Below, in pieces: positions 30,780-61,269 of a stretch of DNA of 64,000 nucleotides. The stretch is from an uncultured Bacteroidota bacterium (GTDB taxonomy: Bacteria; Bacteroidota; Bacteroidia; Bacteroidales; JAAUTT01). Position 1 is the first letter of the stretch; each line of letters begins with the position of its first letter. Where the stretch lies: NCBI GenBank assembly GCA_963766305.1, contig CAVYAE010000078.1, positions 6,811 to 70,810 of the forward strand, read 5' to 3'. The notes under the pieces are model-generated. The model did no database searches, was not told the DNA's origin, and worked only from the letters and a program-made list of their open reading frames with translations. The position numbers were made by a program, and so were the translations under genes.

Positions 30780-30818
30780 AATAAAACTTAAAAACGACCC
30801 ATACCAATTTTTAAATAA

Positions 30819-38522: not shown

Positions 38523-38638
38523 TTAACATATTTTTAGGTAAGAATATTAATTACGAAAGTATTGCATATGTCTGCATTAAAATTATAAAAACCTTTTATT
38601 AATTATTTTGTTTAACACAATATGAACTAAAAAAATCT

Positions 38639-39079: not shown

Positions 39080-39087
39080 GATGTAAT

Positions 39088-40074: not shown

Positions 40075-40097
40075 TATTTAGGATTGAAATACAAAAT

Positions 40098-41474: not shown

Positions 41475-41527
41475 CAGCGATACTCTGCCATATTTTTTAC
41501 GAATATCTTTATCCCCGAATAATGTCT

Positions 41528-42154
41528 TCAGACCATTATTTTTTTTGACACTATGGCCAGGTTTCCTTGCAAAGGGTGTGTCTCATAAGATAAAATTTCA
41601 GCCACAAGGTGAGCCAGATTTAGCCTTTTAAGTGCGCAGGAGGCAATTATTACTGCATCTATGGTGCCTTCGTGAACCTGCATTATGCGTTCTTCTATAG
41701 TACCACGGATACTAACTATTTGAATATCATCCCTTATCTTTAGCAGTTCTTCTTTACGTAAAAGGGAACTTGTTCCAACTCTCGGATATGGTGGCAGTTC
41801 TGAAAGTTTTTTATTATTTCTTGTTACAAGAGAATCTGTTTTGTCAAAAGCTTCGAGGAGAGATATGATTTCAAGCTGCTCATTTAATGGCCAGGGCAGA
41901 TCTTTGGCAGAATGTATGGCTATGTCGGCCTGGTTATTTAATAATGCTTCATCTAGTTCACGTGTGAAGAAATCCTTAATTTTATTATCTATGAGAGGAA
42001 TGTTCTTATTTTTATCTCCATAAGAATTAATTTTAATAACCTGATAATTAAATCCTTGATATAAATCAAATACTTCTTCAACCTGCTTTAATGCAAGATT
42101 GCTTGCACGGGTAGCAACTCTAAGGACTTTATTTTGCCATACCTCATTCTTCAT
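41528..42154 (-). CDS. hemC: Hydroxymethylbilane synthase homologue lacking the C-terminal (cofactor-Cys) domain
   Basis: 'LRVATRASNLALKQ', 'ADIAIHSAKDLP', 'VGTSSLLRKEEL', 'IRGTIEERI', 'LKRLNL' and 'LQGNLAIV' align with E. coli HemC domains 1-2. The ORF stops at 208 aa, whereas the family is ~300 aa. Confidence 0.75.
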   Translation of the reverse strand: MKNEVWQNKVLRVATRASNLALKQVEEVFDLYQGFNYQVIKINSYGDKNKNIPLIDNKIKDFFTRELDEALLNNQADIAIHSAKDLPWPLNEQLEIISLLEAFDKTDSLVTRNNKKLSELPPYPRVGTSSLLRKEELLKIRDDIQIVSIRGTIEERIMQVHEGTIDAVIIASCALKRLNLAHLVAEILSYETHPLQGNLAIVSKKIMV

Positions 42155-42237
42155 TTAGTTTGATATTACTAAATCTTTATTCTTTAAATTAAAATATCTT
42201 TAATTAAATCTTCATTACGTCATTTGTCATCAGTCTT

Positions 42238-42265
42238 CAGTCAACATCCATCAGTCAACATCCAT
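42238..42265. repeat. 14-bp tandem duplication CAGTCAACATCCAT x2 in the cysI-hemC spacer
   Basis: Perfect copies at 42238 and 42252, flanked by related CATC/AGTC words. Confidence 0.9.
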
Positions 42266-42281
42266 CATCTGCCAACAACTG

Positions 42282-43979: not shown

Positions 43980-44009
43980 ATTATTATTTTCGTAAGTTAT
44001 AATCAGGGA

Positions 44010-44228
44010 TTTGACCTGTCATTATTAATTTATTTGGTCAGGTCGAATTCGCATTTATAGTTTATAGTATTGGTGATGCTCATTTGACCTGTTATTATCT
44101 ATTTTAATGGTCAGGTCGAATTCGCGTTTATGTCATATCTTATTTGTGACGCTCATTTGACCTGTAATTATTTATTTATTTGGTCAGGTCGAATTCGCGT
44201 TTATAGTTTATTGCATTGGTGACGCTCA
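44010..44228. repeat. 73-bp tandem repeat x3 filling the cysJ-cysI intercistronic spacer
   Basis: Units start at 44010, 44083 and 44156 (each TTTGACCTG...). Conserved blocks are TTTGACCTGT, GGTCAGGTCGAATTCGC and GTGA(C/T)GCTCA. Each unit contains a TTTGACCTG/CAGGTCGAA 9-bp inverted repeat and a CGAATTCG palindrome. Confidence 0.95.
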
Positions 44229-44251
44229 TTTGCAAATATTCCTCATCCACT

Positions 44252-46111
44252 TTAATAAACATCCACCTGATATCTTTTTGCTTTTTTCATCTGGTGGAGA
44301 TATTCCTCGGCCTTACCGGTGCTCATTCCACCCTCCTGTGAAATAATTTTTATAAGAGTCTGATTTACATCGTTCCACATATTTTTCATATCTCCACATA
44401 CATAAAAATATGCTCCGTTTTCAAGCCAGGAATAAAGCTCCTTTGAATGTTGCTGCATTTTATGCTGTACATATATTTTATTCGGAGTATCACGGGAAAA
44501 GGCAACGCTTAAATTTGTAAGCAGTCCTTTCTTATAAAAACTCTGGAATTCGGTCTGGTACAAAAAGTCATTCGTAAAATTCCAGTTTCCAAAAAACAGC
44601 CAGTTCCTGCCTTTGGCACCTATAGCAGCCCGTTCTTCAAGAAAAGCACGGAAAGGAGCTATTCCGGTTCCGGGACCTACCATAATTACCGGAGCATCTG
44701 TATTTGACGGCAATTTAAATTCAGGATTCTTCTCAGTGAATATTAGTATTTTATCATTATCAGTTATCCTGTCAGATAAAAAAGTTGAACATACCCCTTC
44801 CTTGTATCTTCCGTTGGTATATCTTACCGCAGCTATAGTCAAATGAACTTCTTCAGGGTGTGTCTTTAAACTTGACGATATAGAATATAACCGTGGCTGC
44901 AGCTTCCGTAAAATACCCAGTAATATCACCGGCGATAGTTTAGCGGGATATTTATAAATTAAATCGACAACATCCCTGCCATATATATAATCCTTTAACT
45001 TTGAATTATCTGCCAATATCTCTTCCAGTTCCTTACTTTTTACTATGTTGTTATATTTTTTTATTACATCAGGGTTTATGGAAGATAATTCAAAATAACG
45101 TGATAACGCATCTTCAAGTGTAGTCGTAGTATTTGACACTTCAACAGTTTCCTCAGGATTGAGTTTTAAAAGATCTGTTACTTCTTTAACTATCCTGGGG
45201 GAGTTAATGGGGTAAACTCCCAGGGAATCTCCTGGTTCGAAGGTTAACCCGGAATTTTCGAGTGACAGCTCAAAGTGATAGGTTTCTTTTGCAGAACCTC
45301 GTCCGTTAAGTTTAATTTTATTAATCAGCAGAGCCTGATAAGGGTTAAGTTTGTTATAGCTGCTGACATTTGAAAGATTATTTGAGTTGGAATTGTTTAC
45401 TTTAACTTCCTGCTTATCATTTTGCAGGTTCATTAAAACCTCCTTGAACCATGATAATGCATCGGAATTAAAATCCACATCACAGTCAACCCTGTTACAA
45501 ACTCGCTCACCACCAAGTTCTTCAAGGCGCTTATCTATATCTGCACCTGTTTTACAAAAATTTATATAGGAACGGTCACCCAGAGCTAAAACTGAAAATT
45601 TTAACCCATTTAATTTCGGTGCCCTTTTACTATGTATAAATTCATAAAATTCCTCCGCTGCCACGGGTGGTATACCTTCCCCGTGAGTACTGACAATAAC
45701 TAAAAGTATCTTTTCTTCTTTAAGGTTATTTAAAGGATAATCATTCATGTCCTTCACATCTACATGAATTCCTTTGTTTTGAGTAATTTCTTTAATCTGG
45801 TTGGCAACATACTGTCCGTTTCCTGTCCGGGTACCAAATAATACCGTAATGCCCTTAATATCTATATTCGCATGTTCAGATGAGGATTTGCCAGCACCAG
45901 TAACTTCTTTATTTGCTGGTTCTGCAGCAGGCACAGCGTTACCGGATGAGTCAAGTATCCTGGTATTTAACGATAGAGGTAAAGTAATTCCCGTCAGATA
46001 ACCTGCCAGCCAGGTAAGCTGCTTGTCATTAAAAGCTGTAAGAATTGTTTCAACCAGTTTTTTTTGATCGTTGTCAAATGGAATTATATTTGTCAATCCT
46101 GTTTGTTTCAT
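44252..46111 (-). CDS. cysJ: Assimilatory sulfite reductase (NADPH) flavoprotein alpha-component
   Basis: Flavodoxin-like 'ITVLFGTRTGNG', FAD site 'RLYSISSS', NADPH site 'VIMVGPGTGIAPFRAF', C-terminal 'YQVDVY'. Confidence 0.9.
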   Translation of the reverse strand: MKQTGLTNIIPFDNDQKKLVETILTAFNDKQLTWLAGYLTGITLPLSLNTRILDSSGNAVPAAEPANKEVTGAGKSSSEHANIDIKGITVLFGTRTGNGQYVANQIKEITQNKGIHVDVKDMNDYPLNNLKEEKILLVIVSTHGEGIPPVAAEEFYEFIHSKRAPKLNGLKFSVLALGDRSYINFCKTGADIDKRLEELGGERVCNRVDCDVDFNSDALSWFKEVLMNLQNDKQEVKVNNSNSNNLSNVSSYNKLNPYQALLINKIKLNGRGSAKETYHFELSLENSGLTFEPGDSLGVYPINSPRIVKEVTDLLKLNPEETVEVSNTTTTLEDALSRYFELSSINPDVIKKYNNIVKSKELEEILADNSKLKDYIYGRDVVDLIYKYPAKLSPVILLGILRKLQPRLYSISSSLKTHPEEVHLTIAAVRYTNGRYKEGVCSTFLSDRITDNDKILIFTEKNPEFKLPSNTDAPVIMVGPGTGIAPFRAFLEERAAIGAKGRNWLFFGNWNFTNDFLYQTEFQSFYKKGLLTNLSVAFSRDTPNKIYVQHKMQQHSKELYSWLENGAYFYVCGDMKNMWNDVNQTLIKIISQEGGMSTGKAEEYLHQMKKAKRYQVDVY

Positions 46112-47280: not shown

Positions 47281-47331
47281 CAATTTAAAATATTGGTAAT
47301 AATATATACAAAATTAATCAATTATAAACAG

Positions 47332-48033
47332 ATGAAATTAGTAATTTTTGCCGGCCCGCCAACTTGTGGAAAAACAACTGTTATCCGTCAGGTAATAAAA
47401 AGAATAATTGCTAAAAACCTTAAACCGGCTTACATTAAAATAGATGTATTGTATGCTGATGAGGACCATACTTTGAAAAAGGAATTTGGTATCCCCACAA
47501 GAAAAATTTATTCGGGGGAGCTGTGTCCCGATCACTGCAATGTGGTTGTATTGGATGAAGCTGTCGAATGGGCTGAAAAAACAGGTTCTGATTATTTATT
47601 TGTCGAAACTGCGGGATTGTGTTTACGTTGTTCGCCTTATGTTGAGAACTCTCTGGGAATAGTAGTACTTGAAGCCACCAGCGGCATGAATCTGCCCCGC
47701 AAGATAGGGCCTATGCTAACCCTGGCTGATATTTCCGTAATTACTAAAATTGACCTCATCTCACAGGCTGAGCGCGAAGTGTTCCGTTACCGGGTTCTGG
47801 AATCGGCTAAAAACATTACTGTTGTGGAAAGCAATGCATTATATGGAATAGGTATTGACCCTATAGTAAAACACATACTAAAAACAGAAGATGTTGTTTT
47901 TCCTATGTACCTGCGTGGAAATCCTCCAGTGGGGACATGCACAATTTGTGTCGGGAAAAAGGAAATAGGAGCAAAAAACCATTTTGGTGTATTGAGGACC
48001 ATGGATCAGGAACTTTATTATGTTGGTGAATAA
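47332..48033 (+). CDS. P-loop GTPase of the G3E (HypB/UreG/CobW-like) type with C-terminal Cys motif
   Basis: 'FAGPPTCGKTT' P-loop, 'VETAGLCLRCSPY' (compare HypB 'ENVGNLVCP'), 'ITKIDL' (NKxD-like), C-terminal 'GTCTICVGKKE'. ATG at 47332 is preferred over TTG at 47293. Confidence 0.55.
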   Translation: MKLVIFAGPPTCGKTTVIRQVIKRIIAKNLKPAYIKIDVLYADEDHTLKKEFGIPTRKIYSGELCPDHCNVVVLDEAVEWAEKTGSDYLFVETAGLCLRCSPYVENSLGIVVLEATSGMNLPRKIGPMLTLADISVITKIDLISQAEREVFRYRVLESAKNITVVESNALYGIGIDPIVKHILKTEDVVFPMYLRGNPPVGTCTICVGKKEIGAKNHFGVLRTMDQELYYVGE

Positions 48034-48041
48034 CATTGAGC

Positions 48042-49202
48042 ATGGGAAAAACTGTATATTTTGATTACGCGGCAACTACCTGTGTTGATACGAGAGTATT
48101 GGAAACCATGCTACCCTGGTTTTCAACTTATTTTGGAAATGCGTCAAGTCTCCACCGGTCAGGTACTGAAGCAAGGGAAATACTGAACCATTCCAGGGCC
48201 CGGATTGCAAATTGCATAGGAGCCCAACCTGATGAAATTATATTTACATCCGGAGGAACAGAAGCTAATAACTTCGCATTAAAAGGTATTGCTTTCGCCA
48301 ATAAGACGAAAGGTAACCATATAATTGTTTCTTCCATTGAGCATGATTGCGTGCTTAACTCGTGTAAATGGCTTGAAGAACAGGGATTCTATGTTTCCTA
48401 CCTACCGGTTGACAGCGCCGGATTGATTGATATCGAATATTTAAAAAGAATAATAAACAACAAAACCATTCTGGTTTCAATTATGTTCGCTAACAATGAA
48501 ATAGGTACCATAGAACCGATAGAAGACATAGGTAAAATATGCCGGCAAAATGAGGTTTATTTTCATTCTGATGCCTGCCAGAGCTTTGGCAAGATTCCAA
48601 TAGATGTTAATAAAATGAATATTGATTTGCTTACTATAAATTCTCATAAAATTTATGGACCAAAAGGTGTTGGTGCGCTATACATCCGTAAGGGTACCAA
48701 TATCACACCTCTTTTACACGGAGGAGGGCAGGAAGGAGGCCAACGTTCCTCAACAGAAAATATTCCCGGTGTAGTGGGGTTTGCCAAGGCTGCTGAACTA
48801 TGTTTGTCTGAAATGAATGATGAATATGAAAGGCTTACTCACCTAAGACAAAAACTAACATACTTCCTGCTAAATACTTATGAAGGTGTTTACATAAACG
48901 GGCATACAGAGAAACGTTTACCTGGTCATCTTAGTTTTAGTTTGCATGGTATGGAAGGCGAAACTATCCGGTTGTTACTATTGCTTGATGAGATGGGTAT
49001 TGCCGTTTCTGCAGGTTCGGCGTGTTCCTCAAATCATGGTAACAGCGCTTCTCATGTTTTACAGGCAATAGGCTTAAACCCTTTTGAAGCCAGAGGAGCC
49101 ATCAGGGTAAGTTTTGGCAGGTATACCACAGAAAAAGACATAGATCTGTTAACCAATGCTCTTAGTACTACTATTATGCAATTAAATTCAATATTTTCTT
49201 AA
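48042..49202 (+). CDS. Cysteine desulfurase, NifS/IscS (class I) family
   Basis: 'YFDYAATT', 'FTSGGTEANN', 'TINSHKIYGPKG' (PLP Lys), 'SAGSACSS' (active-site Cys loop). Confidence 0.9.
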   Translation: MGKTVYFDYAATTCVDTRVLETMLPWFSTYFGNASSLHRSGTEAREILNHSRARIANCIGAQPDEIIFTSGGTEANNFALKGIAFANKTKGNHIIVSSIEHDCVLNSCKWLEEQGFYVSYLPVDSAGLIDIEYLKRIINNKTILVSIMFANNEIGTIEPIEDIGKICRQNEVYFHSDACQSFGKIPIDVNKMNIDLLTINSHKIYGPKGVGALYIRKGTNITPLLHGGGQEGGQRSSTENIPGVVGFAKAAELCLSEMNDEYERLTHLRQKLTYFLLNTYEGVYINGHTEKRLPGHLSFSLHGMEGETIRLLLLLDEMGIAVSAGSACSSNHGNSASHVLQAIGLNPFEARGAIRVSFGRYTTEKDIDLLTNALSTTIMQLNSIFS

Positions 49203-49214
49203 AAAATTTAATAA

Positions 49215-49907
49215 ATGGAAACTTTAACATCGCCTAAAACCCCAACAAATGAATTGCTGCCAGGTCTTAATTGCGGAGCTTGTGGCTACAAAACCTGCAA
49301 TGAATTTGCAATTGCTGTTGATAACGCTGAAACTGAACTGAAAAAATGTATTCATGCCAAACAATTAGTAAAAGAGCCGGTTAAAATTAACAAATGCCGG
49401 ACATGCCTTGAGAGTGAAAACCTGGGAGATAAGCTAGGCTGGGTCGACAGCCTTAGCCGTGAGTTTGATTTTATCCTGGATGTCTTTGAAGGTGAACCGG
49501 GACCCAAAGAAACGATATTGCCGTATAACCCGTCTTTAGTTAGTGAATTAGGGGTGAAAAAAGGAGATGTCATGATTGGCCGTCCTATGGGTATGTCATG
49601 CGGATGCCCCGTCACCCATTGCGGAGTAGTGTCTGAGGTGGATGCACGTAACGGCGTTATTCACTGGAACGTAACCGGACCATTACGTCCCCGTATGGAA
49701 GGGTTTATAGATATAGGCTATTATGTTTCCCAGGCATATGAAGGAGTTATAAAAGAATCGAAAGAAGAAATAAAATTAGGCAGGCGTTACTGGTTTTTGC
49801 CCCGCAGGTGTATGTTACAGTGGAGGCACAGCGGATTGGTTAATGCAGTTACAAAAATGAAAGACAGCAGTTATAAAGTCCGCATAGAAGGGTTATTTAT
49901 AGGTTGA
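49215..49907 (+). CDS. Fe-S-binding protein (RnfB-type N-terminal 4Fe-4S domain + uncharacterised Cys-containing C-terminal domain)
   Basis: 'LPGLNCGACGYKTCNEFA...KKC' matches the CxxCx4C...C motif of the RnfB N-terminal Fe-S domain. A second cluster 'MSCGCPVTHCG' follows. The rest is unrecognised. Confidence 0.55.
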   Translation: METLTSPKTPTNELLPGLNCGACGYKTCNEFAIAVDNAETELKKCIHAKQLVKEPVKINKCRTCLESENLGDKLGWVDSLSREFDFILDVFEGEPGPKETILPYNPSLVSELGVKKGDVMIGRPMGMSCGCPVTHCGVVSEVDARNGVIHWNVTGPLRPRMEGFIDIGYYVSQAYEGVIKESKEEIKLGRRYWFLPRRCMLQWRHSGLVNAVTKMKDSSYKVRIEGLFIG

Positions 49908-49990
49908 ATTTCACTACATCCGGAAATTTATTATTTTAATATTAATTTAATCGTTAAATTAGCCAGAAAGATAATTTATACCGGACTTTA

Positions 49991-50806
49991 ATGAACATTG
50001 ACGATAAATATATATCCCTGATCAAATATATAAAATCAACACAAAGCCTGACAGTAGCTTTTTCAGGAGGAATTGACAGCGCTTTTCTTTTGTTTGCTGC
50101 CAGGGAGGCATTAGGCAAGAAGAATGTTTTAGCTGTTACGATAAAAACGCTTTATTTTCCTGAGAGGGATTTAAAGGACGCACTTGAATTCAGTAAAAAA
50201 CTTTCTGTAAAGCATCAGGTTATTGATCATATAGTACCCGATAATTTAAGGCCAAACCCTGTTGACAGATGTTACTACTGTAAAAAGTTTGAATTTTCTG
50301 TTATTATAAACAAGTCCAGAGAGTACAATATAAGCAATGTAGCTGCAGGATTAAATGCAGATGACCCCTCTGACTACAGACCAGGAATATCTGCCATGAA
50401 TGAACTTAACGTACTTTTCCCTTTACAGGAGGTTAACCTGAGTAAAAAAGAAATAAGGGAACTGGCAAGGAAATTTAACCTGAAACTATGGAATAAGCCC
50501 GCCAATGCTTGTATCCTTTCCCGTATCCCATATGGTGATTTTATTACCGATGAAACGATTAAACGTATACAGGAGGCAGAGATTATTCTGCAAAAAGAAG
50601 GATTTGTAAACCCACGTGTACGTACCTACGGTACTACTGCAAGTATCGAAGTTGAACAAAATGAAATAACCAGGTTTTCGGATGATGAGCTCACTTCCAG
50701 AGTTTATTCAGCTATAAAATTACTTGGATATGAAGCTATTACTATAGACAAAAAAGGTTATAGGACAGGAAGCCTTAATGAAGGGGTTGTAACGCCGGTA
50801 AAATAA
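49991..50806 (+). CDS. LarE-like PP-loop ATP pyrophosphatase / sulfur transferase (TIGR00268-like), three-Cys ([4Fe-4S]-type) variant
   Basis: PP-loop 'AFSGGIDSAF', 'DRCYYCKKFEF' (CxxC) and 'ANACILSRIPYG' (third Cys, at the position of the sacrificial Cys in L. plantarum LarE). Confidence 0.75.
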   Translation: MNIDDKYISLIKYIKSTQSLTVAFSGGIDSAFLLFAAREALGKKNVLAVTIKTLYFPERDLKDALEFSKKLSVKHQVIDHIVPDNLRPNPVDRCYYCKKFEFSVIINKSREYNISNVAAGLNADDPSDYRPGISAMNELNVLFPLQEVNLSKKEIRELARKFNLKLWNKPANACILSRIPYGDFITDETIKRIQEAEIILQKEGFVNPRVRTYGTTASIEVEQNEITRFSDDELTSRVYSAIKLLGYEAITIDKKGYRTGSLNEGVVTPVK

Positions 50807-51085: not shown

Positions 51086-51748
51086 ATGGAAAATATTAAT
51101 ATTTTATTGGCAGATAATCAACCGTTCACACGAATTGGCATAACCTCCGTACTATCAGGTTATTTTAACAAGCAAATTATTGTAGATCATGCGACTAACA
51201 GAGAAGAGCTTCATGAAAAATTACATCTTAATAATTCGCATGTATTAATAATTGATTATGAATTATTCGACTTTAACAATATAAATGAATTATCAGAAAT
51301 AAGGACCATTTCCCCCGGAATTGGCATACTGGTTATAACAGATAACCGTAATCCTGACAATGTTATTAAAGTCCTTAATTCCGGAATAACGAATTACATT
51401 CTAAAGTCAGCCAATGAGCAGGAACTTATAGATGCCTTCAATGCTACGGTAAATAACAGGAAATATTTTAGCAGTGAAATACTGGATGTACTGCTTGAGA
51501 AAAAAAATAATTCCCGGAATGGACATGCCTCACGCGGACAGATTACCCCTTCTGAAATAGATATTGTCAAATTAATTACACAGGGTTTAACAACAAAAGA
51601 AATAGCATCTCAGAAAAAACTCAGTTACCATACAATAATTACACACCGGAAGAATATTTTCCGAAAAGTTGGAATAAACAATACCTCAGAACTTATAATG
51701 TATGCAATGCGAACCGGAATAGTTGATTCTACAGAATATTTTATTTAA
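51086..51748 (+). CDS. NarL/FixJ (LuxR-HTH) family response regulator
   Basis: Receiver domain ('ILLADNQP', 'VLIIDYEL', 'ILVITDN', 'NYILKS') plus C-terminal 'ITPSEIDIVKLITQGLTTKEIASQKKLSYHTIITHRKNIFRKVG' LuxR-type HTH. Confidence 0.85.
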   Translation: MENINILLADNQPFTRIGITSVLSGYFNKQIIVDHATNREELHEKLHLNNSHVLIIDYELFDFNNINELSEIRTISPGIGILVITDNRNPDNVIKVLNSGITNYILKSANEQELIDAFNATVNNRKYFSSEILDVLLEKKNNSRNGHASRGQITPSEIDIVKLITQGLTTKEIASQKKLSYHTIITHRKNIFRKVGINNTSELIMYAMRTGIVDSTEYFI

Positions 51749-53207: not shown

Positions 53208-54143
53208 ATGGCTGGTATTGCTAAAACATTGACCGACCTCATTGGGAACACTCCTTTAATGGAACTGGCAAATATTGAGAGAACCTTTAAATTACATGCC
53301 ACAGTTATTGCTAAACTGGAATTATATAATCCCGCAAGAAGTGTTAAGGACAGGATAGGTTTTGCGATGATAAAAGCAGGTGAAAACCAGGGTCTGATAA
53401 ATAAGAATACAACTATAATTGAACCAACAAGCGGTAACACGGGTATTGCTTTAGCTTTTGTTGCAGCAGCCAGAAATTACAAGCTTATACTTATAATGCC
53501 TGAAACCATGAGTATTGAGCGTCGGAACCTTTTGACTGCCCTGGGTGCACAGATAGTTTTAACACCGGGACATGAAGGTATGGGAGGTGCTGTGAGGAAG
53601 GCTGAAGAACTGCATGCCAAAACGCCAAATTCCTTTATCCCCCAGCAATTTAAAAACGCCGCTAATCCTGAAATTCACAGGACTACCACAGCAGAAGAAA
53701 TCTGGAACGATACAGATGGTGATATTGATATTTTTGTTTCAGGCGTTGGCACAGGAGGTACCATTACAGGAGTGGGTGAGGTCCTTAAAAAAAGAAAGCC
53801 CGACATAAAAATTGTGGCGGTGGAACCTTTCGACTCCCCTGTTTTATCGGAAGGCCGACCAGGACCACATAAAATACAGGGTATAGGTGCCGGATTTGTG
53901 CCTGAAGTATTAAACAGGAATGTTATAGATGAAATCATTAAGGTCAAAAATGATGAAGCATTTCAGACAGGAAGGGACCTGGCACGTTTTGAAGGGCTCC
54001 TGGTAGGAATATCTTCCGGAGCTGCCGTTTATGCAGCTGTTCATTTAGCAAAACGTCAGGAGAATAAAGGGAAAAAAATAGTTGTAGTTGTTCCGGATAC
54101 AGGGGAAAGATATATATCTACTTTATTGTATAATAAGGAATAA
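53208..54143 (+). CDS. cysK: Cysteine synthase A (O-acetylserine sulfhydrylase)
   Basis: '[10 protein letters not shown]', '[11 protein letters not shown]' (PLP Lys), '[12 protein letters not shown]', '[10 protein letters not shown]', 'GISSGAA'. Confidence 0.95.
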
Positions 54144-54374
54144 AGGGACTAAATCTCAGGAAGAAATAACTACATAATAGTAATCAACACCTGACATAAA
54201 AATTCAGATAAAAATTAACTCCGTATGCAAAACAGTCAGAAAAATAAATTACACCGTGCTCAAAATATTCAGTATAATGATTAACTCTTGACAAAAAACT
54301 TTCACCATAATAATAAACTTCAGACATCAAATCTTCAGAATAGTAATTAAAACAAAACATAATAAGACAATCAT

Positions 54375-55058
54375 ATGCAAATTAAAGTAAATGGTAAAGA
54401 ACAGAAAATTGAACAGAACCCTTTATTATTGCTCGATCTGATCAAACAAAATAATGTCAGGCAACCTGATATGGTATCCGTTCAGCTTAATGGAAATTTT
54501 GTCCAAAGGGGAGATTTTGACAATACTGCAATAAAAGAAGGGGATGAGGTTGAATTCCTTTACTTTATGGGTGGAGGTCAAGGCGATAGGAAAAAATTGT
54601 CTATTATAAGTTTTAGTGGAGATTTTGATAAACTTGTAGCCGCGTTTACCTTGGCTACCGGCTCAGCTGCAGTCGGATTGGATGTATTTATATTTTTTAC
54701 TTTCTGGGGTTTAAATGTTATTAAAAAGGAACGCGGAAGAAAAGCCTTAGGTAAGGGGTTTCTTGCCAAATTCTTTGTATTTCTGCAGGGAGGAAGGAAT
54801 AATTTACCTTTAAGCAGATTAAATTTTGGCGGCATAAGTCCCAAACTAATGACACATATGATGCGCCAGAGGAATGTTGCTACACTTGATGAACTTATTG
54901 ATGCGGCTATTGCTCTTGATGTTAAACTTTATGCATGCGAAATGTCCGGGGTAATTCTCGGTTTGGACAAGGATACTTATATCCCTGAAGTAAAAGAGGT
55001 AATAGGAGTGGCTAAATTCCTTGAGCTCTCTGAAGGCGGCGACAGGATTTTCATTTAA
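54375..55058 (+). CDS. Fusion protein: ThiS/MoaD-type sulfur carrier (residues 1-68, ending ...FMGGG) + DsrE/DsrF/DrsH-like domain
   Basis: N-terminus 'MQIKVNGKEQKIE...VQLNGNFVQRGDFDNTAIKEGDEVEFLYFMGGG' is a complete ThiS ending in the Gly-Gly(-Gly) terminus. The remainder, 'KLSIISFSGDFDKLVAAFTLATGSAAVGLDVFIFFTFWGLNVI...LYACEMSGVILGL', matches the COG2210/DrsE_2 family, including the conserved Cys. Confidence 0.75.
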   Translation: MQIKVNGKEQKIEQNPLLLLDLIKQNNVRQPDMVSVQLNGNFVQRGDFDNTAIKEGDEVEFLYFMGGGQGDRKKLSIISFSGDFDKLVAAFTLATGSAAVGLDVFIFFTFWGLNVIKKERGRKALGKGFLAKFFVFLQGGRNNLPLSRLNFGGISPKLMTHMMRQRNVATLDELIDAAIALDVKLYACEMSGVILGLDKDTYIPEVKEVIGVAKFLELSEGGDRIFI

Positions 55059-55083: not shown

Positions 55084-56520
55084 ATGTCTGAAGATTTTAC
55101 AACACGAAGCGTAACTACAGTCATTGCCCGCAACCTGGCGAATACAACCAAGACGGTTCCTCAAATGGGGTCTATAACCCCAAGGTATTTACTTAAACTG
55201 CTGCCATGGGTGCATGTGGCATCCGGTACATACAGGGTCAACAGGACTAAAGTTGAGCTTAAGAAAGCCGACCGTATTGAAATAGATTACAGGGAAGGTT
55301 CAGCTTCATTTCAGTCCGAAGCTTTAAAAAGCATACCACTGTTTTCATCACTCGAAGAGGATATCCTTGAACGAATTGCAACACGCTTTACCACAGAAGA
55401 AGCAGATCTGGGAAGCAACCTTATTCTTGAAGGCGAAGACAGGCATAAGTTTTTTATAATTGCACACGGTCAGGTGGAGGTCTTAAGTAAGGGACTCCAC
55501 GGGGAAGAACTCAGGATTGCACTTTTATCGGAAGGGGAATATTTCGGTGAGGAAGATTTTATCACAGACAGGCCATCAGACGTTACAGTAAGGGCAATAA
55601 CCCATGGGGTATTTCTAACCTTATCTGGAAAGGATCTGGAGGCAATTTTCAGTGAAATCCCAAATTCACGCAAGAAATTTGAAAAAGCCAGGGAAGATTA
55701 TGCTAGATTAAGATCTTCGGTGAACAAACACGGAGAACGACATATAGACCTGGTATCAGGTTTAGAGGAAGACCATGTAATACCTGAAACTTATGTGGAT
55801 TATGCAGTAAAACCCAAGGAATATTCACTAAATGCTATTCAAACCATTGTGAGGGTCCATACCAGAGTATCCGACCTTTACAACGATCCCCACAACCAGC
55901 TGGAACAACAAATGCGGCTGACCATTGAAGGCATGAAAGAAAAGCAGGAATGGGAACTAATTAATAACAAGGAATTTGGATTGTTACATGCTGTAGATCC
56001 CAGCCAGCGAATAAGCACACGTTATGGAGCACCTACCCCTGACGATCTGGATGAGTTACTTGCTCTCGTTTGGAAAAAACCAGCTTTCTTTTTGGCACAT
56101 CCCAAAGCTATAGCTGCTTTTGAACGTGAGTGTACCTGGAGAGGAGTACCGCCGGTTACTATTCAGCTATTTGGAAGTCCTATAGTAACATGGAGGGGTG
56201 TTCCATTAATCCCGAATGACAAGCTTGAAGTAAGGGGACATTTATCCAGCCGTGGTCTTGGTACTACCAATATATTACTTATAAGGGTAGGAGAGGATGA
56301 GCAGGGGGTAGTGGGTCTGCACCAGGCAGGAATTCCGGGGGAAATTTCTCCCAGCCTTTCTGCACGTCTGATGGGATTGGACCGCCTGGGTGTTGCTTCT
56401 TACCTGTTAACCCAGTATTTTTCATTGGCCGTACTTACGGATGATGCATTGGCAGTTCTTGAAAATGTAGAAGTGGGATATTATCACGATTATCAGCACA
56501 GAATTCCAAAAGTAAAATGA
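55084..56520 (+). CDS. Family 2B encapsulin nanocompartment shell protein (HK97 fold with inserted cNMP-binding domain)
   Basis: 'ARNLANTTKTVPQMGSITPRYLLKLLPW', 'IPETYVDYAVKPKEYSLNAIQTIVRVHTRVSDLYN', 'YGAPTPDDLDELLALVWKKPAFFLAHPKAIAAFERECTWRGVPP', 'WRGVPLIP' and 'LAVLTDDALAVLENVEV' match my memory of SrpI-type Family 2 shells. Residues ~85-200 ('IPLFSSL...FGEEDF...RPSDVTVRA') form a CRP-like cNMP-binding domain. Confidence 0.85.
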   Translation: MSEDFTTRSVTTVIARNLANTTKTVPQMGSITPRYLLKLLPWVHVASGTYRVNRTKVELKKADRIEIDYREGSASFQSEALKSIPLFSSLEEDILERIATRFTTEEADLGSNLILEGEDRHKFFIIAHGQVEVLSKGLHGEELRIALLSEGEYFGEEDFITDRPSDVTVRAITHGVFLTLSGKDLEAIFSEIPNSRKKFEKAREDYARLRSSVNKHGERHIDLVSGLEEDHVIPETYVDYAVKPKEYSLNAIQTIVRVHTRVSDLYNDPHNQLEQQMRLTIEGMKEKQEWELINNKEFGLLHAVDPSQRISTRYGAPTPDDLDELLALVWKKPAFFLAHPKAIAAFERECTWRGVPPVTIQLFGSPIVTWRGVPLIPNDKLEVRGHLSSRGLGTTNILLIRVGEDEQGVVGLHQAGIPGEISPSLSARLMGLDRLGVASYLLTQYFSLAVLTDDALAVLENVEVGYYHDYQHRIPKVK

Positions 56521-56553
56521 TTATACAAATACACAAAATATACAAAATAATAT

Positions 56554-58299
56554 ATGTCAGAAAACAATGCAACTTTTGAACCACCTATTGGTGATGAATT
56601 ATTGAATCCTGCAATAATTGCCCAAATAGCAAGCAGAATTTATAATGAAATACCTGGTGTTTCAGGAATACCTGTTAATCTTGCTGAGGCTTCAAAAACA
56701 CCCTCGGAGTACAGTGATCCCGGAGAGTTGTTGAATTATAATACCTCAATTGATGAACCGGCTATTGCTGATTTTAGTTTTTTAAAGAATATATTGGGCC
56801 TGGAATCAGGTGCTGGTTGCATAGCTAAAGTATTAAGAGTAGAAAATACAAAACAAAGTGATTTTTCAGGGAAATTGCTGGGAGGATATATACCTGATTA
56901 TTACTTTCTTAAAAACAGTAATATTCAGGAAGATAAACAATTATTAGAGCATACGGATAACCTGGTAAATCAGCAAACCCTGACGGGAGACACTGCCGGA
57001 GCATCCAGTTTGAAACAATATGTTCAAAAGGTTCGGTCAGTAAATGGTGGCTTCTCAGAGAAAAGCCGGGATAATTCAATTTTTGATGTTAACCGTATCA
57101 GGAAGGATTTTCCCGTTCTTAACCAGTATGTGCACGGGAAGCCTTTAATATGGTTTGATAATGCAGCAACGACACAAAAACCCGGAAGTGTAATAGATTC
57201 CTTGTCCAGGTTTTACAGTCATGATAATTCAAACATACACCGGGGAGCACATTCCCTGGCAGCGAGGGCTACTGATGGCTATGAAGGTACAAGGGAGAAT
57301 GTAAGGCGTTTTCTGGGAGCGGGGTCCGTGTCTGAAATTGTATTTGTAAGGGGAACCACAGAAGCTATTAATCTGGTAGCTCAGACCTGGGGAAGGAAAA
57401 ACATTCTTCCTGGTGATGAGATACTTGTTACTATACTGGAACATCATGCAAATATTGTACCCTGGCAAATGCTGGCAAAGGAAAAAGGGGCAATCCTCCG
57501 TCCCATACCTGTAAATGACAGGGGTGAGATTTTACTTGATGATTACAGCAGGTTGCTTACGCCGCATACAAAATTGGTAGCTCTTACACATGCTTCGAAC
57601 AGCATTGGTACCATTTTGCCTGTTAAGGAAATGATACAGCTCGCCAAACGATATGATACAAAGGTATTGGTAGACGGAGCACAGTCTGTGGCTCACATAC
57701 CTGTCAACGTCCAGGACCTGGATGCTGATTTCTTCGTATTTTCAGGCCATAAAATATTTGCTCCTACCGGTATAGGTATTTTGTTCGGTAAAAAGGAAAT
57801 ATTGGAAAATATGCCTCCATGGCAGGGTGGGGGAAATATGATTAAGGATGTCACCTTCGGAGAAACTATTTTTAATAAAGTACCGGATAAATTTGAAGCA
57901 GGTACACCAAGTATTGGTGACGCAATAGGTTTAGGCGCTGCACTGGATTATGTAAATAAAGTTGGTCTGCATAATATTGCCGCTTACGAGCACAAACTTA
58001 CTGATTATGCAACCGGGCTGTTAAGGCAAATTCCAGGGGTAAGACTTATAGGCTTACCTGGAGAAAAAGTAGGAGTTATATCTTTAGTATTAAACAATAT
58101 TAATAGTGAACAGGCAGGCCGGTACCTCGACCAGGAAGGGATTGCCCTGCGTACGGGACATCATTGTGCTCAGCCAGCCCTGAGAAGGTTTGGAGTAGAA
58201 AGTACCATAAGACCTTCATTTTCATTTTATAATACCTTTGATGAGATTGACTGTTTTGTTGCAGCCATTAAGAAAATTGCCCAGGGGAAATTACTATAA
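56554..58299 (+). CDS. SufS/CsdA-type (class II) cysteine desulfurase with ~175-aa N-terminal extension; predicted encapsulin cargo
   Basis: The core starts at 'IRKDFPVLNQYVHGKPLIWFDNAATTQKP' and includes 'HRGAHSLA', 'FSGHKIFAPTGIG' (PLP Lys) and 'RTGHHCAQP' (active-site Cys). The N-terminal ~175 aa are low-complexity and contain 'LNPAIIAQIASRIYNEIPG', reminiscent of the cargo-loading motif of Family 2 desulfurases. Confidence 0.85.
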   Translation: MSENNATFEPPIGDELLNPAIIAQIASRIYNEIPGVSGIPVNLAEASKTPSEYSDPGELLNYNTSIDEPAIADFSFLKNILGLESGAGCIAKVLRVENTKQSDFSGKLLGGYIPDYYFLKNSNIQEDKQLLEHTDNLVNQQTLTGDTAGASSLKQYVQKVRSVNGGFSEKSRDNSIFDVNRIRKDFPVLNQYVHGKPLIWFDNAATTQKPGSVIDSLSRFYSHDNSNIHRGAHSLAARATDGYEGTRENVRRFLGAGSVSEIVFVRGTTEAINLVAQTWGRKNILPGDEILVTILEHHANIVPWQMLAKEKGAILRPIPVNDRGEILLDDYSRLLTPHTKLVALTHASNSIGTILPVKEMIQLAKRYDTKVLVDGAQSVAHIPVNVQDLDADFFVFSGHKIFAPTGIGILFGKKEILENMPPWQGGGNMIKDVTFGETIFNKVPDKFEAGTPSIGDAIGLGAALDYVNKVGLHNIAAYEHKLTDYATGLLRQIPGVRLIGLPGEKVGVISLVLNNINSEQAGRYLDQEGIALRTGHHCAQPALRRFGVESTIRPSFSFYNTFDEIDCFVAAIKKIAQGKLL

Positions 58300-58445: not shown

Positions 58446-58844
58446 TTAATTTATAATCTTGATCTCTTCATTCAAAGCGATGCCATTGACAATGCGAAAT
58501 GACTTTACCACCGGTTCTTTTTCTGCAAGGGAAATAATTATATAGCTGATATCCGGATCATAGGCAAGACGTATGTCTTCCTGTGAAGGTCGTGAAGGAG
58601 TTGATGGATGGCTGTGGTAATTTGCAATAATATTTAAGCCTTTATTACGGGCTTCTTTTACAGTTTTAAACTGTTCTGACGGATCGAATGAAAAATGTTC
58701 AGGGCTATGGTCAGTATTAGTAAGCTCATAGGCCGTTGTTATAACACCGTCCTCTCCCGCAAGATAACCACATGCTTCATCCGGCAGGTCTTTTTTAGCA
58801 TGTGCTATAATCTGATCTAATATACCACTTGATATTGAAATCAT
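58446..58844 (-). CDS. JAMM/MPN+ metalloprotease (Mec+/HcyD/QbsD-like)
   Basis: 'EACGYL' and 'HSHPSTPSRPSQED' (E...HxH...S..D JAMM motif). The start overlaps the TusA-like stop by 4 nt. Confidence 0.85.
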   Translation of the reverse strand: MISISSGILDQIIAHAKKDLPDEACGYLAGEDGVITTAYELTNTDHSPEHFSFDPSEQFKTVKEARNKGLNIIANYHSHPSTPSRPSQEDIRLAYDPDISYIIISLAEKEPVVKSFRIVNGIALNEEIKIIN

Positions 58845-59065
58845 TTTTCAATAGTTATTTTGTGTACAGAATCTTTCACATGCTGAATATTCAAAACCTT
58901 ATATCCCTGTTCAGTGGCGCTCTTAGGCACATTCTCCAATGGCTCACCTTCTGTAAGTAAAACTTCAAGGATATCTCCATTATTAAGTTTTGACAATTCA
59001 ATTTTAGTTTTTACAAATGTCATCGGACAATGTTCTTTTGTAATATCAAGTTGTTTAGTTGCCAT
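58841..59065 (-). CDS. TusA/SirA-family sulfurtransferase
   Basis: 74 aa. 'LDITKEHCPMTFVKTKIELSKL..GDILEVL' carries the conserved Cys, in CPMT rather than the canonical CPxP. Confidence 0.7.
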   Translation of the reverse strand: MATKQLDITKEHCPMTFVKTKIELSKLNNGDILEVLLTEGEPLENVPKSATEQGYKVLNIQHVKDSVHKITIEK

Positions 59066-59080: not shown

Positions 59081-59911
59081 TTATTTATGATGTTCATTTT
59101 CTGTAATCGGCGGTGTTTCGCAAACTGGCAGGTCATAGGTTTGTAATTCAGTTATCGTAGGATGTTCACCGCAGATGGGGCATTGTTTGTTTCTGTTAAA
59201 TGTTATATTACGAAATTCCATGGATAATGCATTAAATGTCAGCAAACGGTTTGTCAACAGTTCACCCGTTCCTGTAAAATACTTCAGCACTTCGGTAGCT
59301 TGTATAGTTCCGAGCATCCCTGCAATCGATCCCAATACTCCTGCCTGCGAACATGTAGGCACAGCATCGGGTGGTGGCGGACTGTTGAAGGCACACCTGT
59401 AACAAGCGTTGTCAGGAGTATGGGTAAATGTTTGTCCTTCAAAACGAAGGATACCTCCATGTGAGAATGGTTTACCCGATATTACACAAGCATCATTAAT
59501 CAGGAATTTTGTAGGAAAGTTGTCTGTACCATCAATTACAAAATCGTAGTTTTTTATAATATCAAATATATTATAGGATGACAGTAAATCCTGGTAAGCA
59601 ATTACATATACATCCGGGTTGAGCTTATTTATTTTTTCTTTTGCGGAGTTCACCTTTGGTTTATTGACGTCTTCGGTATAATGTATGACCTGTCTCTGGA
59701 GGTTGGTCAGATCAACTACATCGGCATCTATTATTCCAATTGTCCCCACACCTGCTGCAGCAAGGTAAAGAGCAGCAGGTGAACCAAGTCCGCCTGCCCC
59801 GACTATGAGTACCTTACCTTCCATAATTTTTTGCTGTCCTTCAACACCCACATTCTGAAGGATTATATGCCTGCTGTAACGTTCAATTTGGGAATCTGTA
59901 AATTCTATCAT
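59081..59911 (-). CDS. ThiF/MoeB/HesA-family E1-like adenylyltransferase (HcyF/MoeZ-like, no rhodanese domain)
   Basis: 'RYSRHIIL..VG.EGQQKI....VLIVGAGGLGSPAALYLAAAGVG', 'DLTNLQRQ', and the Zn motifs 'CYRC' and 'CPICG'. Confidence 0.9.
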   Translation of the reverse strand: MIEFTDSQIERYSRHIILQNVGVEGQQKIMEGKVLIVGAGGLGSPAALYLAAAGVGTIGIIDADVVDLTNLQRQVIHYTEDVNKPKVNSAKEKINKLNPDVYVIAYQDLLSSYNIFDIIKNYDFVIDGTDNFPTKFLINDACVISGKPFSHGGILRFEGQTFTHTPDNACYRCAFNSPPPPDAVPTCSQAGVLGSIAGMLGTIQATEVLKYFTGTGELLTNRLLTFNALSMEFRNITFNRNKQCPICGEHPTITELQTYDLPVCETPPITENEHHK

Positions 59912-59984: not shown

Positions 59985-60040
59985 TAATCAGTTATCAATC
60001 ATCTGTCGTCCATAATCAGTCGTCAATCATCTGTCCTCAG
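59985..60040. repeat. 28-bp tandem repeat x2 in the metY - E1 spacer
   Basis: TAATCAGTTATCAATCATCTGTCGTCCA / TAATCAGTCGTCAATCATCTGTCCTCAG. The second copy overlaps the metY stop codon (60037-60039). Confidence 0.85.
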
Positions 60041-61269
60041 ACTAAAGCTGATTCAATATCTGTTAATAAATCATTAATATCTTCTATTCCTGCTGATAAT
60101 CTCAATAATGTATCCGGTACTCCTATTTTCTGGCGTGTTTCGAAACCAAAATCACAATATATTGTCGAAGCAGGATGAATAATTACTGATTTGTTATCGT
60201 AAATATTTGTTGCACGCCGGATTAATTTCAGATTATTAATAAAATCAAAACTTTCCTGCTTTGTTTCGAAATTTATTGTAAGCATGGCTCCAGGGTATTT
60301 ACCAAACTGCTTAAGGCCGATATTGTAAAATGGTGAGCCGGGTAAACCCGGATAATTCACATTTTTTATGCCTGGTTTATCCAGAAGATATTCAGCTATG
60401 GACAGACAATTACTTACCGATTTGTCAAAACGAAGTGCAAGGGATTCAAGCCCCACACTCTGAAGGTAAGCATTGAATGGTGACAGGCAGGCACCTAAGT
60501 TTCTTTGTATTTCTCTTCTAAGCTTGACTTTTAGTACCCAGGGTCCGAATTTAGAAGATAAATTGGAAAGCTTTTTGTTGTACGACCAATCATAAGTGCC
60601 ATAGTCTACTATAATCCCTCCGACTGAGGTAGCCCCTCCTGAAATTATTTTAGTACTGGATATTACTTCAATATTTATACCAAAATCTGAAGCCCGGAAT
60701 ATATTAGGCGGAGTAAGGGTGGTATCGGCAATTAATAATAAATGATGCTCTTTGGCAACCCCTGATAAAGGGCTAATATCAGCAATTTCAAGTTGAGGAT
60801 TTGTAATGGTTTCAATATATATTGCCACGGTATCCCCATCTATATTTTGTTGTACTTCTTCAATATTGTTTAAGTCACAAAACCTGACTTCAACACCAAA
60901 AGGTTCCAGAGTAGATGTAAAAAAGGAATAAGTGTTCCCAAACAGGTGCCTCGAGGCAATTATATTGCTGCCAGCCTGGCATATGGCTAAAAATATATTC
61001 GAAATGGCAGCCATGCCTGAGCCTAGTGCAGAAACAGCTATGCCTCCTGTAACCGATAATATCCGTCTTTCGAGGTTTTCTACTGTAGGGTTTGAAATAC
61101 GGGTATAGATATGGTCAGGATGATGCCCAAGAAATGCCTCTTCCATGTATTCAGCAGATTCAAATTCAAAGGCAGCATTGCTGTATATTGGCATTTGAAG
61201 TGCATTGTGAGCATCGTTTCTGGCATAGCCGGTATGAATTATTTTAGTAGAAAACCCTTCCAGTTCCAT
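60037..61269 (-). CDS. metY: O-acetylhomoserine sulfhydrylase-like PLP enzyme (MetY family)
   Basis: 'YTRISNPTV', 'LGSGMAAI', 'SSTKIISGGATSVGGIIVDYGTYDWS' (PLP Lys and the OAHS-type insertion), C-terminal 'LLRLSAGIEDINDLLTDIESAL'. Confidence 0.8.
   Translation of the reverse strand: MELEGFSTKIIHTGYARNDAHNALQMPIYSNAAFEFESAEYMEEAFLGHHPDHIYTRISNPTVENLERRILSVTGGIAVSALGSGMAAISNIFLAICQAGSNIIASRHLFGNTYSFFTSTLEPFGVEVRFCDLNNIEEVQQNIDGDTVAIYIETITNPQLEIADISPLSGVAKEHHLLLIADTTLTPPNIFRASDFGINIEVISSTKIISGGATSVGGIIVDYGTYDWSYNKKLSNLSSKFGPWVLKVKLRREIQRNLGACLSPFNAYLQSVGLESLALRFDKSVSNCLSIAEYLLDKPGIKNVNYPGLPGSPFYNIGLKQFGKYPGAMLTINFETKQESFDFINNLKLIRRATNIYDNKSVIIHPASTIYCDFGFETRQKIGVPDTLLRLSAGIEDINDLLTDIESALV

Follow-up and report, generated by a model that had tools for sequence, protein, structure and literature searches.

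What does the gene pair at positions 55084-58299 of this stretch build, and how is it connected with the sulfur genes around it? The stretch, referred to here as the window, is 64 kb (64,000 nucleotides, nt) of DNA from an uncultured Bacteroidota bacterium. The first gene codes for a protein of 478 amino acids (aa) that resembles encapsulin shells and carries an inserted domain with the fold of cyclic nucleotide monophosphate (cNMP)-binding domains; the second codes for a cysteine desulfurase with a long N-terminal extension. The pair is with good probability a two-gene family 2B encapsulin operon, in which an HK97-type shell is loaded with the desulfurase and sulfur is kept inside. By analogy with related systems, its function is most likely the sequestration of sulfur from cysteine. 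Domain identities, gene adjacency, motif conservation, catalytic residues, a substitution in the pocket of the inserted domain and neighbourhood statistics were observed directly.

Shell protein and desulfurase cargo

The shell gene has the following parts:
55084-56520, plus strand: family 2B encapsulin shell, 478 aa, according to NF041163, PF19307, PF00027 and alignments to solved 2B shells
55084-55251, plus strand: shell N-arm and N-helix, 'TKTVPQMGSITPRYLLKLLPW', aa 1-56, aligning to SrpI residues 9-56 with 41 bits
55252-55713, plus strand: inserted domain with the cNMP-binding fold, aa 57-210 (Pfam and AlphaFold2, AF2); it takes in the stretch that corresponds to the published metal-binding subdomain
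55576-55578, plus strand: Ser165 codon, at the position of E. coli CAP Arg82 and S. griseus EshA Trp176, by residue count on the HMMER alignment
55708-56478, plus strand: SrpI-like HK97 core, aa 209-465, PF19307 with E 1e-115

The protein matched NF041163, the NCBIfam equivalog 'family 2B encapsulin shell', with 582.5 bits against a cut-off of 400 and over profile positions 1-449 of 450. Pfam recognised the SrpI-like domain PF19307 at aa 209-465 (E 1e-115) and the cNMP_binding domain PF00027 at aa 110-190 (E 1e-13). The original prediction, made from the DNA letters alone, had proposed a profile or homology search for family 2 encapsulins and for Pfam cNMP_binding, and both matched. In the PDB search, the shell was aligned over its full length with the solved 2B shells 9bje, 9bhu and 9bix, with E from 5e-117 (9bje) to 4e-107. 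Its N-arm and C-terminal core were aligned also with the 2A shells 6x8m (SrpI), 8t6r (A. baumannii), and 8wol (mycobacterial). The N- and C-terminal blocks quoted in the original prediction fall within the alignments with SrpI (6x8m) and the solved 2B shells, and its assignment of the 478-aa product to SrpI-type, family 2B shells is borne out by the NF041163 and PF19307 matches and by the full-length alignments. Many positions of the N-arm and N-helix are invariant in the shell alignment A1.

Compared over aa 228-465, the HK97 core shares 61.8% identity with SrpI (2A), 53.8% with 9bje, and 50.4% with 9bhu. By these identities it is nearer to the 2A desulfurase shells than to the solved 2B shells of Streptomyces. 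Identity of 50-62% to structurally solved shells suggests that the protein would assemble into an icosahedral shell enclosing the cargo. A second shell gene was not found within the 64-kb window. A prophage capsid remnant was also considered and was dropped, as the shell has no phage genes for neighbours and its pairing with the desulfurase is conserved in four phyla.

The inserted domain, at residues 61-210, is the only part that was modelled confidently by AF2 (predicted local distance difference test, pLDDT, 72-88), and it superposes on genuine cyclic-nucleotide-binding (CNB) domains at 2-3 A with TMt 0.7-0.8. The complete CRP-type cNMP-binding domain claimed earlier is thus complete as a fold, but the arginine that binds the phosphate is missing, with Ser165 in its place. 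A metal-binding subdomain in front of the CNB barrel is reported as conserved in 2B shells. The putative counterpart here, aa 57-85, aligns to EshA; it has invariant E58, R64 and G72 and contains acidic residues.

The cargo gene has the following parts, with consensus sequences taken from A2, a 30-sequence alignment of cargos:
56554-58299, plus strand: cargo, SufS-type cysteine desulfurase with N-terminal extension, 581 aa (TIGR01979, 8kg1)
56554-57081, plus strand: cargo N-terminal region, putative cargo-loading domain, aa 1-176 (AF2, conservation)
56602-56658, plus strand: motif 1, 'LNPAIIAQIASRIYNEIPG', aa 17-35, LARLANEFFS-like, consensus 'NP..IAQ.ASRIYNE.PG'
56890-56913, plus strand: motif 2, 'IPDYYFLK', aa 113-120, AASPYYFLDG-like, consensus 'D[YF]YF'
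56932-56982, plus strand: motif 3, 'DKQLLEHTDNLVNQQTL', aa 127-143, consensus 'PL..H[AT][DN]NLV.QQ', predicted helix 130-141
57004-57048, plus strand: motif 4, 'SSLKQYVQKVRSVNG', aa 151-165, consensus 'L..FV.KVQSV', predicted helix 153-162
57082-58296, plus strand: SufS catalytic core, aa 177-581
57751-57753, plus strand: lysine K400 that binds pyridoxal phosphate (PLP), SGHK motif invariant in A2
58165-58167, plus strand: catalytic cysteine C538, GHHC motif invariant in A2

The spacer between shell and cargo is 33 nt long (56521-56553), one less than the 34 nt first given. The cargo scored 545 bits with TIGR01979 (SufS family, cut-off 475), contains Pfam Aminotran_5 at aa 199-567, and has 8kg1 as its best solved match (E 5e-173). 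The matches of shell and cargo lie well outside what chance would give. The class II SufS core starts at about aa 177, which agrees with the SufS-type desulfurase with a core from about residue 178 that had been claimed. Since K400 and C538 are invariant, the enzyme is probably active.

The region in front of the core is variable, acidic (net charge -9), and predicted to be disordered. AF2 gave 10-residue block means of 23-53 pLDDT over aa 1-176, in line with the disorder expected for residues 1-175, and short helices at aa 19-31, 130-141, and 153-162, which fall on motifs 1, 3, and 4. The description of this segment as low-complexity did not hold: its entropy is 3.99 bits vs 4.10 bits in the core, and no 12-aa window is below 2.2 bits. 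The majority-residue fraction in A2 is 0.42 for the N-terminal region and 0.84 for the core; inside the region, motif positions reach 0.64 and the remaining ones 0.31. In motif 1, P19, I22, A23, A26, S27, R28, N31, E32, and P34 are invariant or nearly so. In motif 2, Y117 and F118 are near-invariant, and [FY]YF[LI] is repeated, often twice, in related cargos. L130, H133, L137, and Q141 of motif 3 are invariant, with Q140 near-invariant, as is L153 of motif 4. The form 'L..FV..[VI][RQ]' of motif 4 was found in Planctomycetota cargos too, and looser forms of motifs 1 and 4 in Planctomycetota and Prevotella-type cargos.

LARLANEFFS and AASPYYFLDG are the published motifs of 2A cargos (PMC8049743), and by alignment motifs 1 and 2 correspond to these two loading motifs. 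The LARLANEFF-like element 'IIAQIASRIYNE' pointed out in the original prediction is real and lies at the same position in cargos of several phyla; the second one, YYF, had gone unmentioned. Homologues of the cargo were collected from genomic context and by full-length search, as a query with the N-terminal 213 aa gave mostly fragments from the start of the SufS core. About 50 residues (A2 columns ~225-335) are deleted in the window cargo and in the relatives P0212 and P0213; other relatives carry an 'F.FL' element and a second YYF there.

For comparison, 80 loci round relatives of the shell were fetched from reference genomes of Bacteroidota, Chlorobiota, Planctomycetota, and one Spirochaetota metagenome-assembled genome. 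A desulfurase follows the shell in 68 of the 80. These cargos are 510-749 aa long vs about 405 aa of a plain SufS, and their N-terminal extensions measure 115-354 aa, with a median of 201 (67 cargos). An adjacent second shell paralogue was found in 20 of 26 Planctomycetota loci, in none of 20 from Bacteroidota, and in none of 33 from Chlorobiota. The single shell gene, earlier taken as an oddity, is therefore the rule in the latter two phyla. The tandem shells of Planctomycetota (e.g., 8494 and 10001 in L030, also L038, L039, and L046) are 66-71% identical to the window shell and precede the desulfurase, and both copies of such pairs have a Ser or Ala pocket.

Relation to known encapsulin systems

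A catalogue of 199 2B operons with desulfurase cargo from nine phyla was published by Andreas and Giessen in 2021 (PMC8346489), and a paper of 2024 puts desulfurase-loaded systems at about 9% of family 2B (PMC11550324). The weight that the original prediction gave to a desulfurase-loaded 2B shell is thus overstated. The window pair has the same architecture as the catalogued class (PMC8346489), with no difference at the level of the class, and the operon is a further member of this class, which was described bioinformatically in 2021. The exact window proteins are already present in NCBI, ENA, and Logan without functional names, and the NCBI annotation model NF041163 already names such shells. 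As the class was known before, the find alone changes little, and its value is that of a test case; it is unsurprising to a specialist, yet a reasonable model for the questions of ligand and sulfur remobilisation.

Among known systems close to that of the window are the desulfurase encapsulins of family 2A, namely SrpI/CyD of S. elongatus (6x8m), the A. baumannii system (8t6r), and mycobacterial Mmp1 (8wol). They share with the window system the type of cargo enzyme, the LARLANEFFS-like and YYF loading motifs, the 62% identical core and the N-arm, and probably the same sulfur-sequestering chemistry. A difference is in the inserted domain of about 150 residues, which 2A shells lack. The characterised 2B shells (S. 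griseus EshA/Sg Enc 9bhu; S. lydicus 9bje and 9bix; M. xanthus geosmin) have the CNB-fold insertion in common with the window shell, and like it they are without the canonical arginine that contacts cAMP. Their cargos are terpenoid-related (2-methylisoborneol synthase, geosmin synthase), unlike the desulfurase of the window; EshA has Trp176 in the pocket where the window shell has Ser165, and some of them are two-component, e.g., that of S. lydicus, in contrast to the single shell gene here. By sequence comparison, the shell core and the cargo motifs track the type of cargo more than the presence of the insertion. The kinship of core and motifs with 2A therefore lends support to a 2A-like mode of loading and 2A-like chemistry.

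In the 2A systems, the cargo is loaded by discontiguous binding of its motifs near the three-fold pores and the A-domains, and storage as elemental sulfur (S0) was shown for the Acinetobacter system (PMC10836720). The S. elongatus system is induced by sulfur starvation (PMC8049743). A rhodanese was proposed as the sulfur acceptor in 2A operons (PMC8346489, PMC10836720).

Sulfur genes beside the pair and possible fate of the sulfur

The shell-desulfurase pair of the window is flanked by these sulfur genes:
53208-54143, plus strand: CysK (O-acetylserine sulfhydrylase), TIGR01139 with 468 bits vs cut-off 351
54375-55058, plus strand: ThiS-DsrE2 fusion, 227 aa, 25 nt upstream of the shell; PF02597 at aa 3-68 and PF13686 at aa 72-220
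58446-58844, minus strand: JAB/JAMM metallopeptidase, PF14464 with E 5e-28; E23, H77-x-H79, and S87..D90 intact
58841-59065, minus strand: TusA sulfurtransferase, 74 aa, PF01206 with E 3e-21; Cys13-Pro14; 4-nt overlap with jab
59081-59911, minus strand: ThiF/MoeB-type E1 adenylyltransferase, PF00899 with E 7e-82; GAGGLG and two CxxC; no rhodanese domain
60037-61269, minus strand: O-acetylhomoserine sulfhydrylase-like (MetY-type) PLP enzyme, PF01053 with E 9e-96; TIGR01326 with 358 bits, below the cut-off of 495

The tusA gene, situated between thiF and jab, is too short for the 80-aa cut-off used for open reading frames (ORFs). Active-site motifs are intact in all of the sulfur-carrier neighbours, and all parts of a carrier system are present beside the shell: a ThiS-like beta-grasp carrier, an E1 enzyme, a JAMM peptidase, and PLP sulfhydrylases of the CysK/MetY type. 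In the fusion, the ThiS part is closed by GGG66-68, and the DsrE2-like domain has a single cysteine, Cys188. ThiS and DsrE2 form one ORF only in the window and in loci L002 and L004, and are separate genes in the other loci. As the Gly-Gly is internal in the fusion, action as a carrier would need a cut after it, presumably by the nearby JAB. Stand-alone ThiS proteins of the relatives end with GGG, GGGQ, or GGGQA, which fits a JAB exposing the Gly-Gly end. Such exposure of the carrier end by a JAB-type peptidase occurs in the CysO and HcyS systems.

The published accessory genes of the 2B desulfurase class are serine acetyltransferase (SAT) and rhodanese; the window locus has CysK, ThiS-DsrE2, TusA, ThiF, and JAB instead, and no rhodanese gene was found next to its shell. 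In 60 of the 80 related loci, from four phyla, a CysK gene is found no more than 10 kb from the shell, and a PALP neighbour was already tabulated by Nichols et al. Most Chlorobiota loci and some others have a SAT-like gene immediately before the shell; none was found near the window shell. Among the Bacteroidota loci with a long flank (at least 6 kb upstream of the shell, n=11), CysK and TusA were present in all 11, DsrE2 and ThiS in 10, and ThiF and JAB in nine. These genes are mostly co-directional with the shell, often on one strand in the order cysK-thiS-thiF-dsrE2-tusA-jab-(SAT)-shell-desulfurase (e.g., L048 and L027). The Bacteroidota shells therefore stand beside candidate sulfur acceptors (TusA, DsrE2, ThiS), which makes them relevant to the step of sulfur remobilisation.

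The compartment would work as follows, with shell assembly, cargo loading, and sulfur storage drawn from homology. The 478-aa subunit would self-assemble into an icosahedral nanocompartment with the cNMP-binding-fold domain on the outside. The largely disordered 176-residue region of the cargo would bind through its four motifs to separate patches of the inner surface and so tether desulfurase dimers inside, where L-cysteine would be converted to L-alanine. The abstracted sulfur would build up as a sequestered pool of S0 or polysulfide, as in the Acinetobacter 2A system. The external domain would sense, if anything, a ligand other than a cNMP. In Bacteroidota, the adjacent TusA, DsrE2, and ThiS-ThiF-JAB would be the likeliest takers of mobilised sulfur, filling the role proposed for the rhodanese of 2A operons.

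Several points weigh against this interpretation. No experimental study of any 2B desulfurase system was found in the literature searched up to July 2026, and assembly, loading, and sulfur storage would have to be extrapolated from 2A systems and from terpenoid 2B systems. The AF2 model of the shell, with 29 close homologues as input, has a mean pLDDT of 51 and is unusable in the HK97 part, which is mostly below 50, and the HK97 fold is thus supported by sequence homology only. Foldseek placed encapsulin shells at the top of the matches to this model, but with a template modelling (TM) score of at most 0.33 and a root-mean-square deviation above 23 A, and such matches are weak and seem partly sequence-driven. 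Of the AlphaFold and Foldseek check for an HK97 fold that had been suggested earlier, the CNB domain (72-88 pLDDT) came out well and the HK97 part (mostly below 50, TM at most 0.33) did not. The cargo reached 760.3 bits with NF041166, the NCBIfam '2A cargo' model with a cut-off of 800, and matched profile positions 207-623 only, since the model leaves the cargo's N-terminal region unaligned; NF041166 was built for 2A cargos, and failing it is no argument against the status of a 2B cargo. The window cargo and the two relatives closest to it, P0212 and P0213, have lost a fifth motif, a second YYF that other relatives keep just ahead of the core. ThiF, TusA, JAB, and MetY of the window are on the strand opposite to the shell and are therefore not co-transcribed with it. 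ThiS, DsrE2, TusA, and JAB were found in none of the 60 non-Bacteroidota loci (Chlorobiota, Planctomycetota, Spirochaetota). In a reverse control, metagenomes were scanned with the DsrE2 domain, and 36 loci were informative, with at least 2.5 kb downstream; a shell stands beside the sulfur-carrier module in 10 of these, and the module is without encapsulin in the other 26. The adjacency of the encapsulin and the module may reflect a shared sulfur island only.

The sulfur-carrier module is a free-standing operon, which the encapsulin pair has joined in some genomes only. An obligate link between the two was rejected on account of the 26 of 36 informative loci without an adjacent shell. Metagenomes commonly contain the free-standing thiS-thiF-dsrE2-tusA-jab operon, in many cases together with metY and cysK (L083-L155, e.g., L091, L100, L117, and L130). 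It looks like a protein-thiocarboxylate pathway of cysteine or methionine synthesis, with a TusA/DsrE2 relay replacing the rhodanese. Known pathways of this kind are CysO-MoeZ-Mec-CysM of M. tuberculosis and HcyS-HcyF-HcyD-MetY of W. succinogenes. Their Gly-Gly carrier, E1-like adenylyltransferase, JAMM peptidase, and CysK/MetY-type sulfhydrylases are all matched by the window neighbours, which add TusA and a DsrE2-like protein, the latter fused to ThiS, and whose ThiF is without a rhodanese domain, unlike that of the systems compared.

Hence the shell could be a sulfur depot dedicated to this neighbouring pathway, a possible but tentative and still speculative extension of the sequestration reading, which it would not replace. 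Shell sulfur would pass by way of TusA and DsrE2 to ThiF-adenylated ThiS, freed by JAB after Gly68, and the resulting ThiS-COSH would serve CysK/MetY for the synthesis of cysteine or homocysteine. Such coupling is favoured by the near-universal and mostly co-directional adjacency in Bacteroidota 2B loci, with the one-strand operons of L048 and L027, by the ThiS-DsrE2 fusion, which argues for joint work of both proteins, and by the ends of the relatives' ThiS together with a JAB that has an intact JAMM site. The rhodanese domain is the usual persulfide supplier and ThiF lacks it, and the rhodanese acceptor proposed for 2A operons has no counterpart found beside the window shell. On the other side, the module is free-standing in the majority of the informative metagenome loci and absent from all of the non-Bacteroidota ones, and a folded acceptor cannot enter the shell, so that a small-molecule shuttle or a hand-off at the shell surface must be assumed. 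No paper was found with both 'encapsulin' and 'thiocarboxylate', and the main texts of the two survey papers do not mention ThiF, MoeB, or sulfur carriers. The adjacency of encapsulin and sulfur-carrier genes seems to be unreported.

It is rather unlikely that the main role is the removal of excess free cysteine, that is, detoxification or redox buffering, and not the storage of sulfur for reuse. Detoxification was proposed as a simultaneous function of 2A systems (PMC10836720), and CysK, in many loci together with SAT, lies directly upstream, which links production and consumption of cysteine genetically. Sequence data cannot separate this role from storage; the induction of the S. elongatus system by sulfur starvation fits storage and mobilisation better.

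Pocket of the inserted domain

The pocket position was assigned by counting residue by residue on the HMMER alignment of the shell to 9bhu (S. griseus EshA). The pocket reads G151-E-Y-F-G155-E156...P164-S165-D-V-T-V-R170, so that the Gly-Glu half of the phosphate-binding cassette (G155-E156) is kept and the phosphate-contacting Arg is replaced by Ser165. In EshA, the counterpart of Arg82, which contacts cAMP in E. coli CAP, is Trp176 (PMC11550324). Trp at this position was reported for 'essentially all' 2B shells; this typical, non-defining trait of the family is not found in the window shell, which has Ser165. In 101 shell copies of the clade (the 80 loci and the window), the residue is Ser in 97 and Ala in four. 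An exhaustive search of 1.84 billion cluster representatives showed that family 2B varies at the position: every representative with 53% identity or more to the window shell is Ser-type, and among the more distant 2B ones are about 12 of the Trp type, four of the Ala type, and about 10 of the Arg type with a canonical 'FGE...PR[NQ]AT' cassette. Of five Arg-type shells whose context was looked up, four have a long-N-terminus desulfurase directly after them, and so has one Ala-type shell. The pocket of desulfurase-type 2B shells thus comes in three variants, Arg, Ala, and Ser.

The Arg-type shells with a desulfurase next to them are at 276-1664 of L156 (P0352), 3574-4968 of L157 (P0351), 2987-4408 of L158 (P0355), and 153-1574 of L159 (P0357). 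Judged from their cassettes, these four are the most promising members of family 2B for genuine cyclic-nucleotide binding, and on the same sequence grounds they qualify the published claim that nearly all 2B shells lack the arginine. The original prediction had called the ligand and the role of the cNMP-type domain unknown, and the literature searched up to July 2026 has not changed this: no ligand was reported there for any 2B inserted domain, and cAMP is excluded for two other 2B shells. The natural pocket variants give a handle on the ligand question of the external domain, with accumulation of S0 as an easy read-out for their comparison. The additions to the known class are modest and consist of the Ser-type pocket clade, the Arg-type desulfurase 2B shells, a core closer to 2A, and the sulfur-carrier adjacency with the ThiS-DsrE2 fusion, seen only in Bacteroidota.

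It is conceivable, with a low probability, that the CNB-fold domain was repurposed as a sensor of sulfur status, the Arg type being ancestral and the Ser type derived. A ligand such as O-acetylserine, N-acetylserine, cysteine, or a persulfide species would then switch the shell between deposit of sulfur and release to the TusA/DsrE2-ThiS relay. Any such ligand gating is speculative; if true, the compartment would be a regulated sulfur battery for the synthesis of cysteine and methionine in Bacteroidota.

Still more doubtful is a genuine cyclic-nucleotide sensor, with cAMP or cGMP gating the shell pores and so regulating the desulfurase. The complete CNB fold and the retained G155-E156 speak for it, and other desulfurase-type 2B shells have the canonical cassette, so the ancestral domain may have bound a cNMP. 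However, the arginine needed for contact with the cyclic phosphate is replaced by Ser165, and all of the 101 clade copies have Ser or Ala there, because of which cNMP binding by the window domain is judged unlikely. Mutations of CAP Arg82 abolish binding, CNB domains without this arginine bind other ligands, and the 2B shells of S. griseus and M. xanthus do not bind cAMP (PMC11550324).

A CRP/FNR-family transcription factor beside a housekeeping SufS of iron-sulfur (Fe-S) assembly, without any compartment, is hardly credible: some database sources do name relatives of the shell 'CRP-like cAMP-binding protein' or 'cyclic nucleotide-binding domain-containing protein', and the PDB depositors named 9bje and 9bix 'Crp/Fnr family transcriptional regulator' although both are in fact encapsulin shells, but the reading is already contradicted by the predicted domain architecture, as Pfam and NCBIfam profile searches found no helix-turn-helix domain in the protein, its C-terminal 270 residues are an SrpI-like HK97 core, the desulfurase has a 176-aa extension bearing encapsulin-cargo motifs, no sufBCD or sufE was found near the pair, and a separate NifS-type desulfurase is coded at 48036-49202 of the window.

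Further observations were made in the surroundings of the pair. A NarL/LuxR-type response regulator at 51086-51748 lies upstream of the window cysK, and about 20 Chlorobiota 2B loci have a 33-40% identical regulator immediately before cysK (at ~7100-7300, e.g., L006 and L007); it may be a conserved operon regulator, or the resemblance may be at the family level only. Upstream of thiS-dsrE2, four copies of TCAG[AT]-N5-12-[AT]TTA[AC] occur at 54204-54350 with spacings of 32, 33, and 66 nt. The pattern is enriched compared with shuffles, but it was defined post hoc and does not occur in the 56 further regions upstream of thiS that were examined, and no function as an operator is claimed. Scans for sigma-70 promoters and intrinsic terminators gave counts equal to the shuffle expectation, with Bacteroidota promoters outside the coverage of the tool, and no operon boundaries are therefore claimed. 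Rfam gave no matches across the whole window, hence no riboswitch near the sulfur genes.

A methionine gamma-lyase/cystathionine gamma-synthase-like gene (PF01053) on the plus strand, from 51807 to about 52985, has a frameshift near 52770, with the C-terminal '...LIRVSVGLENADDIIAEFEQAL' in another frame, and is either a pseudogene or an assembly error. Clustered on the plus strand at 47293-50806 are genes for a CobW/HypB/UreG-type GTPase, the NifS-type desulfurase, a protein with an Fe-S domain, and a PP-loop ATPase (NAD_synthase/LarE-like); the first three are also seen close to the encapsulin of Breznakibacter (L004). In L027, a sulfite reductase (NIR_SIR domains) with a C-terminal TusA domain is coded at 1735-4167, upstream of the sulfur-carrier module and the encapsulin operon, which hints at direct passing of reduced sulfur to the TusA relay. 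In the window, tetrapyrrole genes at 37248-46111 (HemL-like, ALAD, and a methylase-HemD fusion) adjoin CysI- and CysJ-like sulfite reductase genes, and a sulfur-assimilation island therefore spans about 37-61 kb. PorP/SprF of the type IX secretion system and CHU_C proteins, coded at 29826-33336, confirm the Bacteroidota origin of the DNA.

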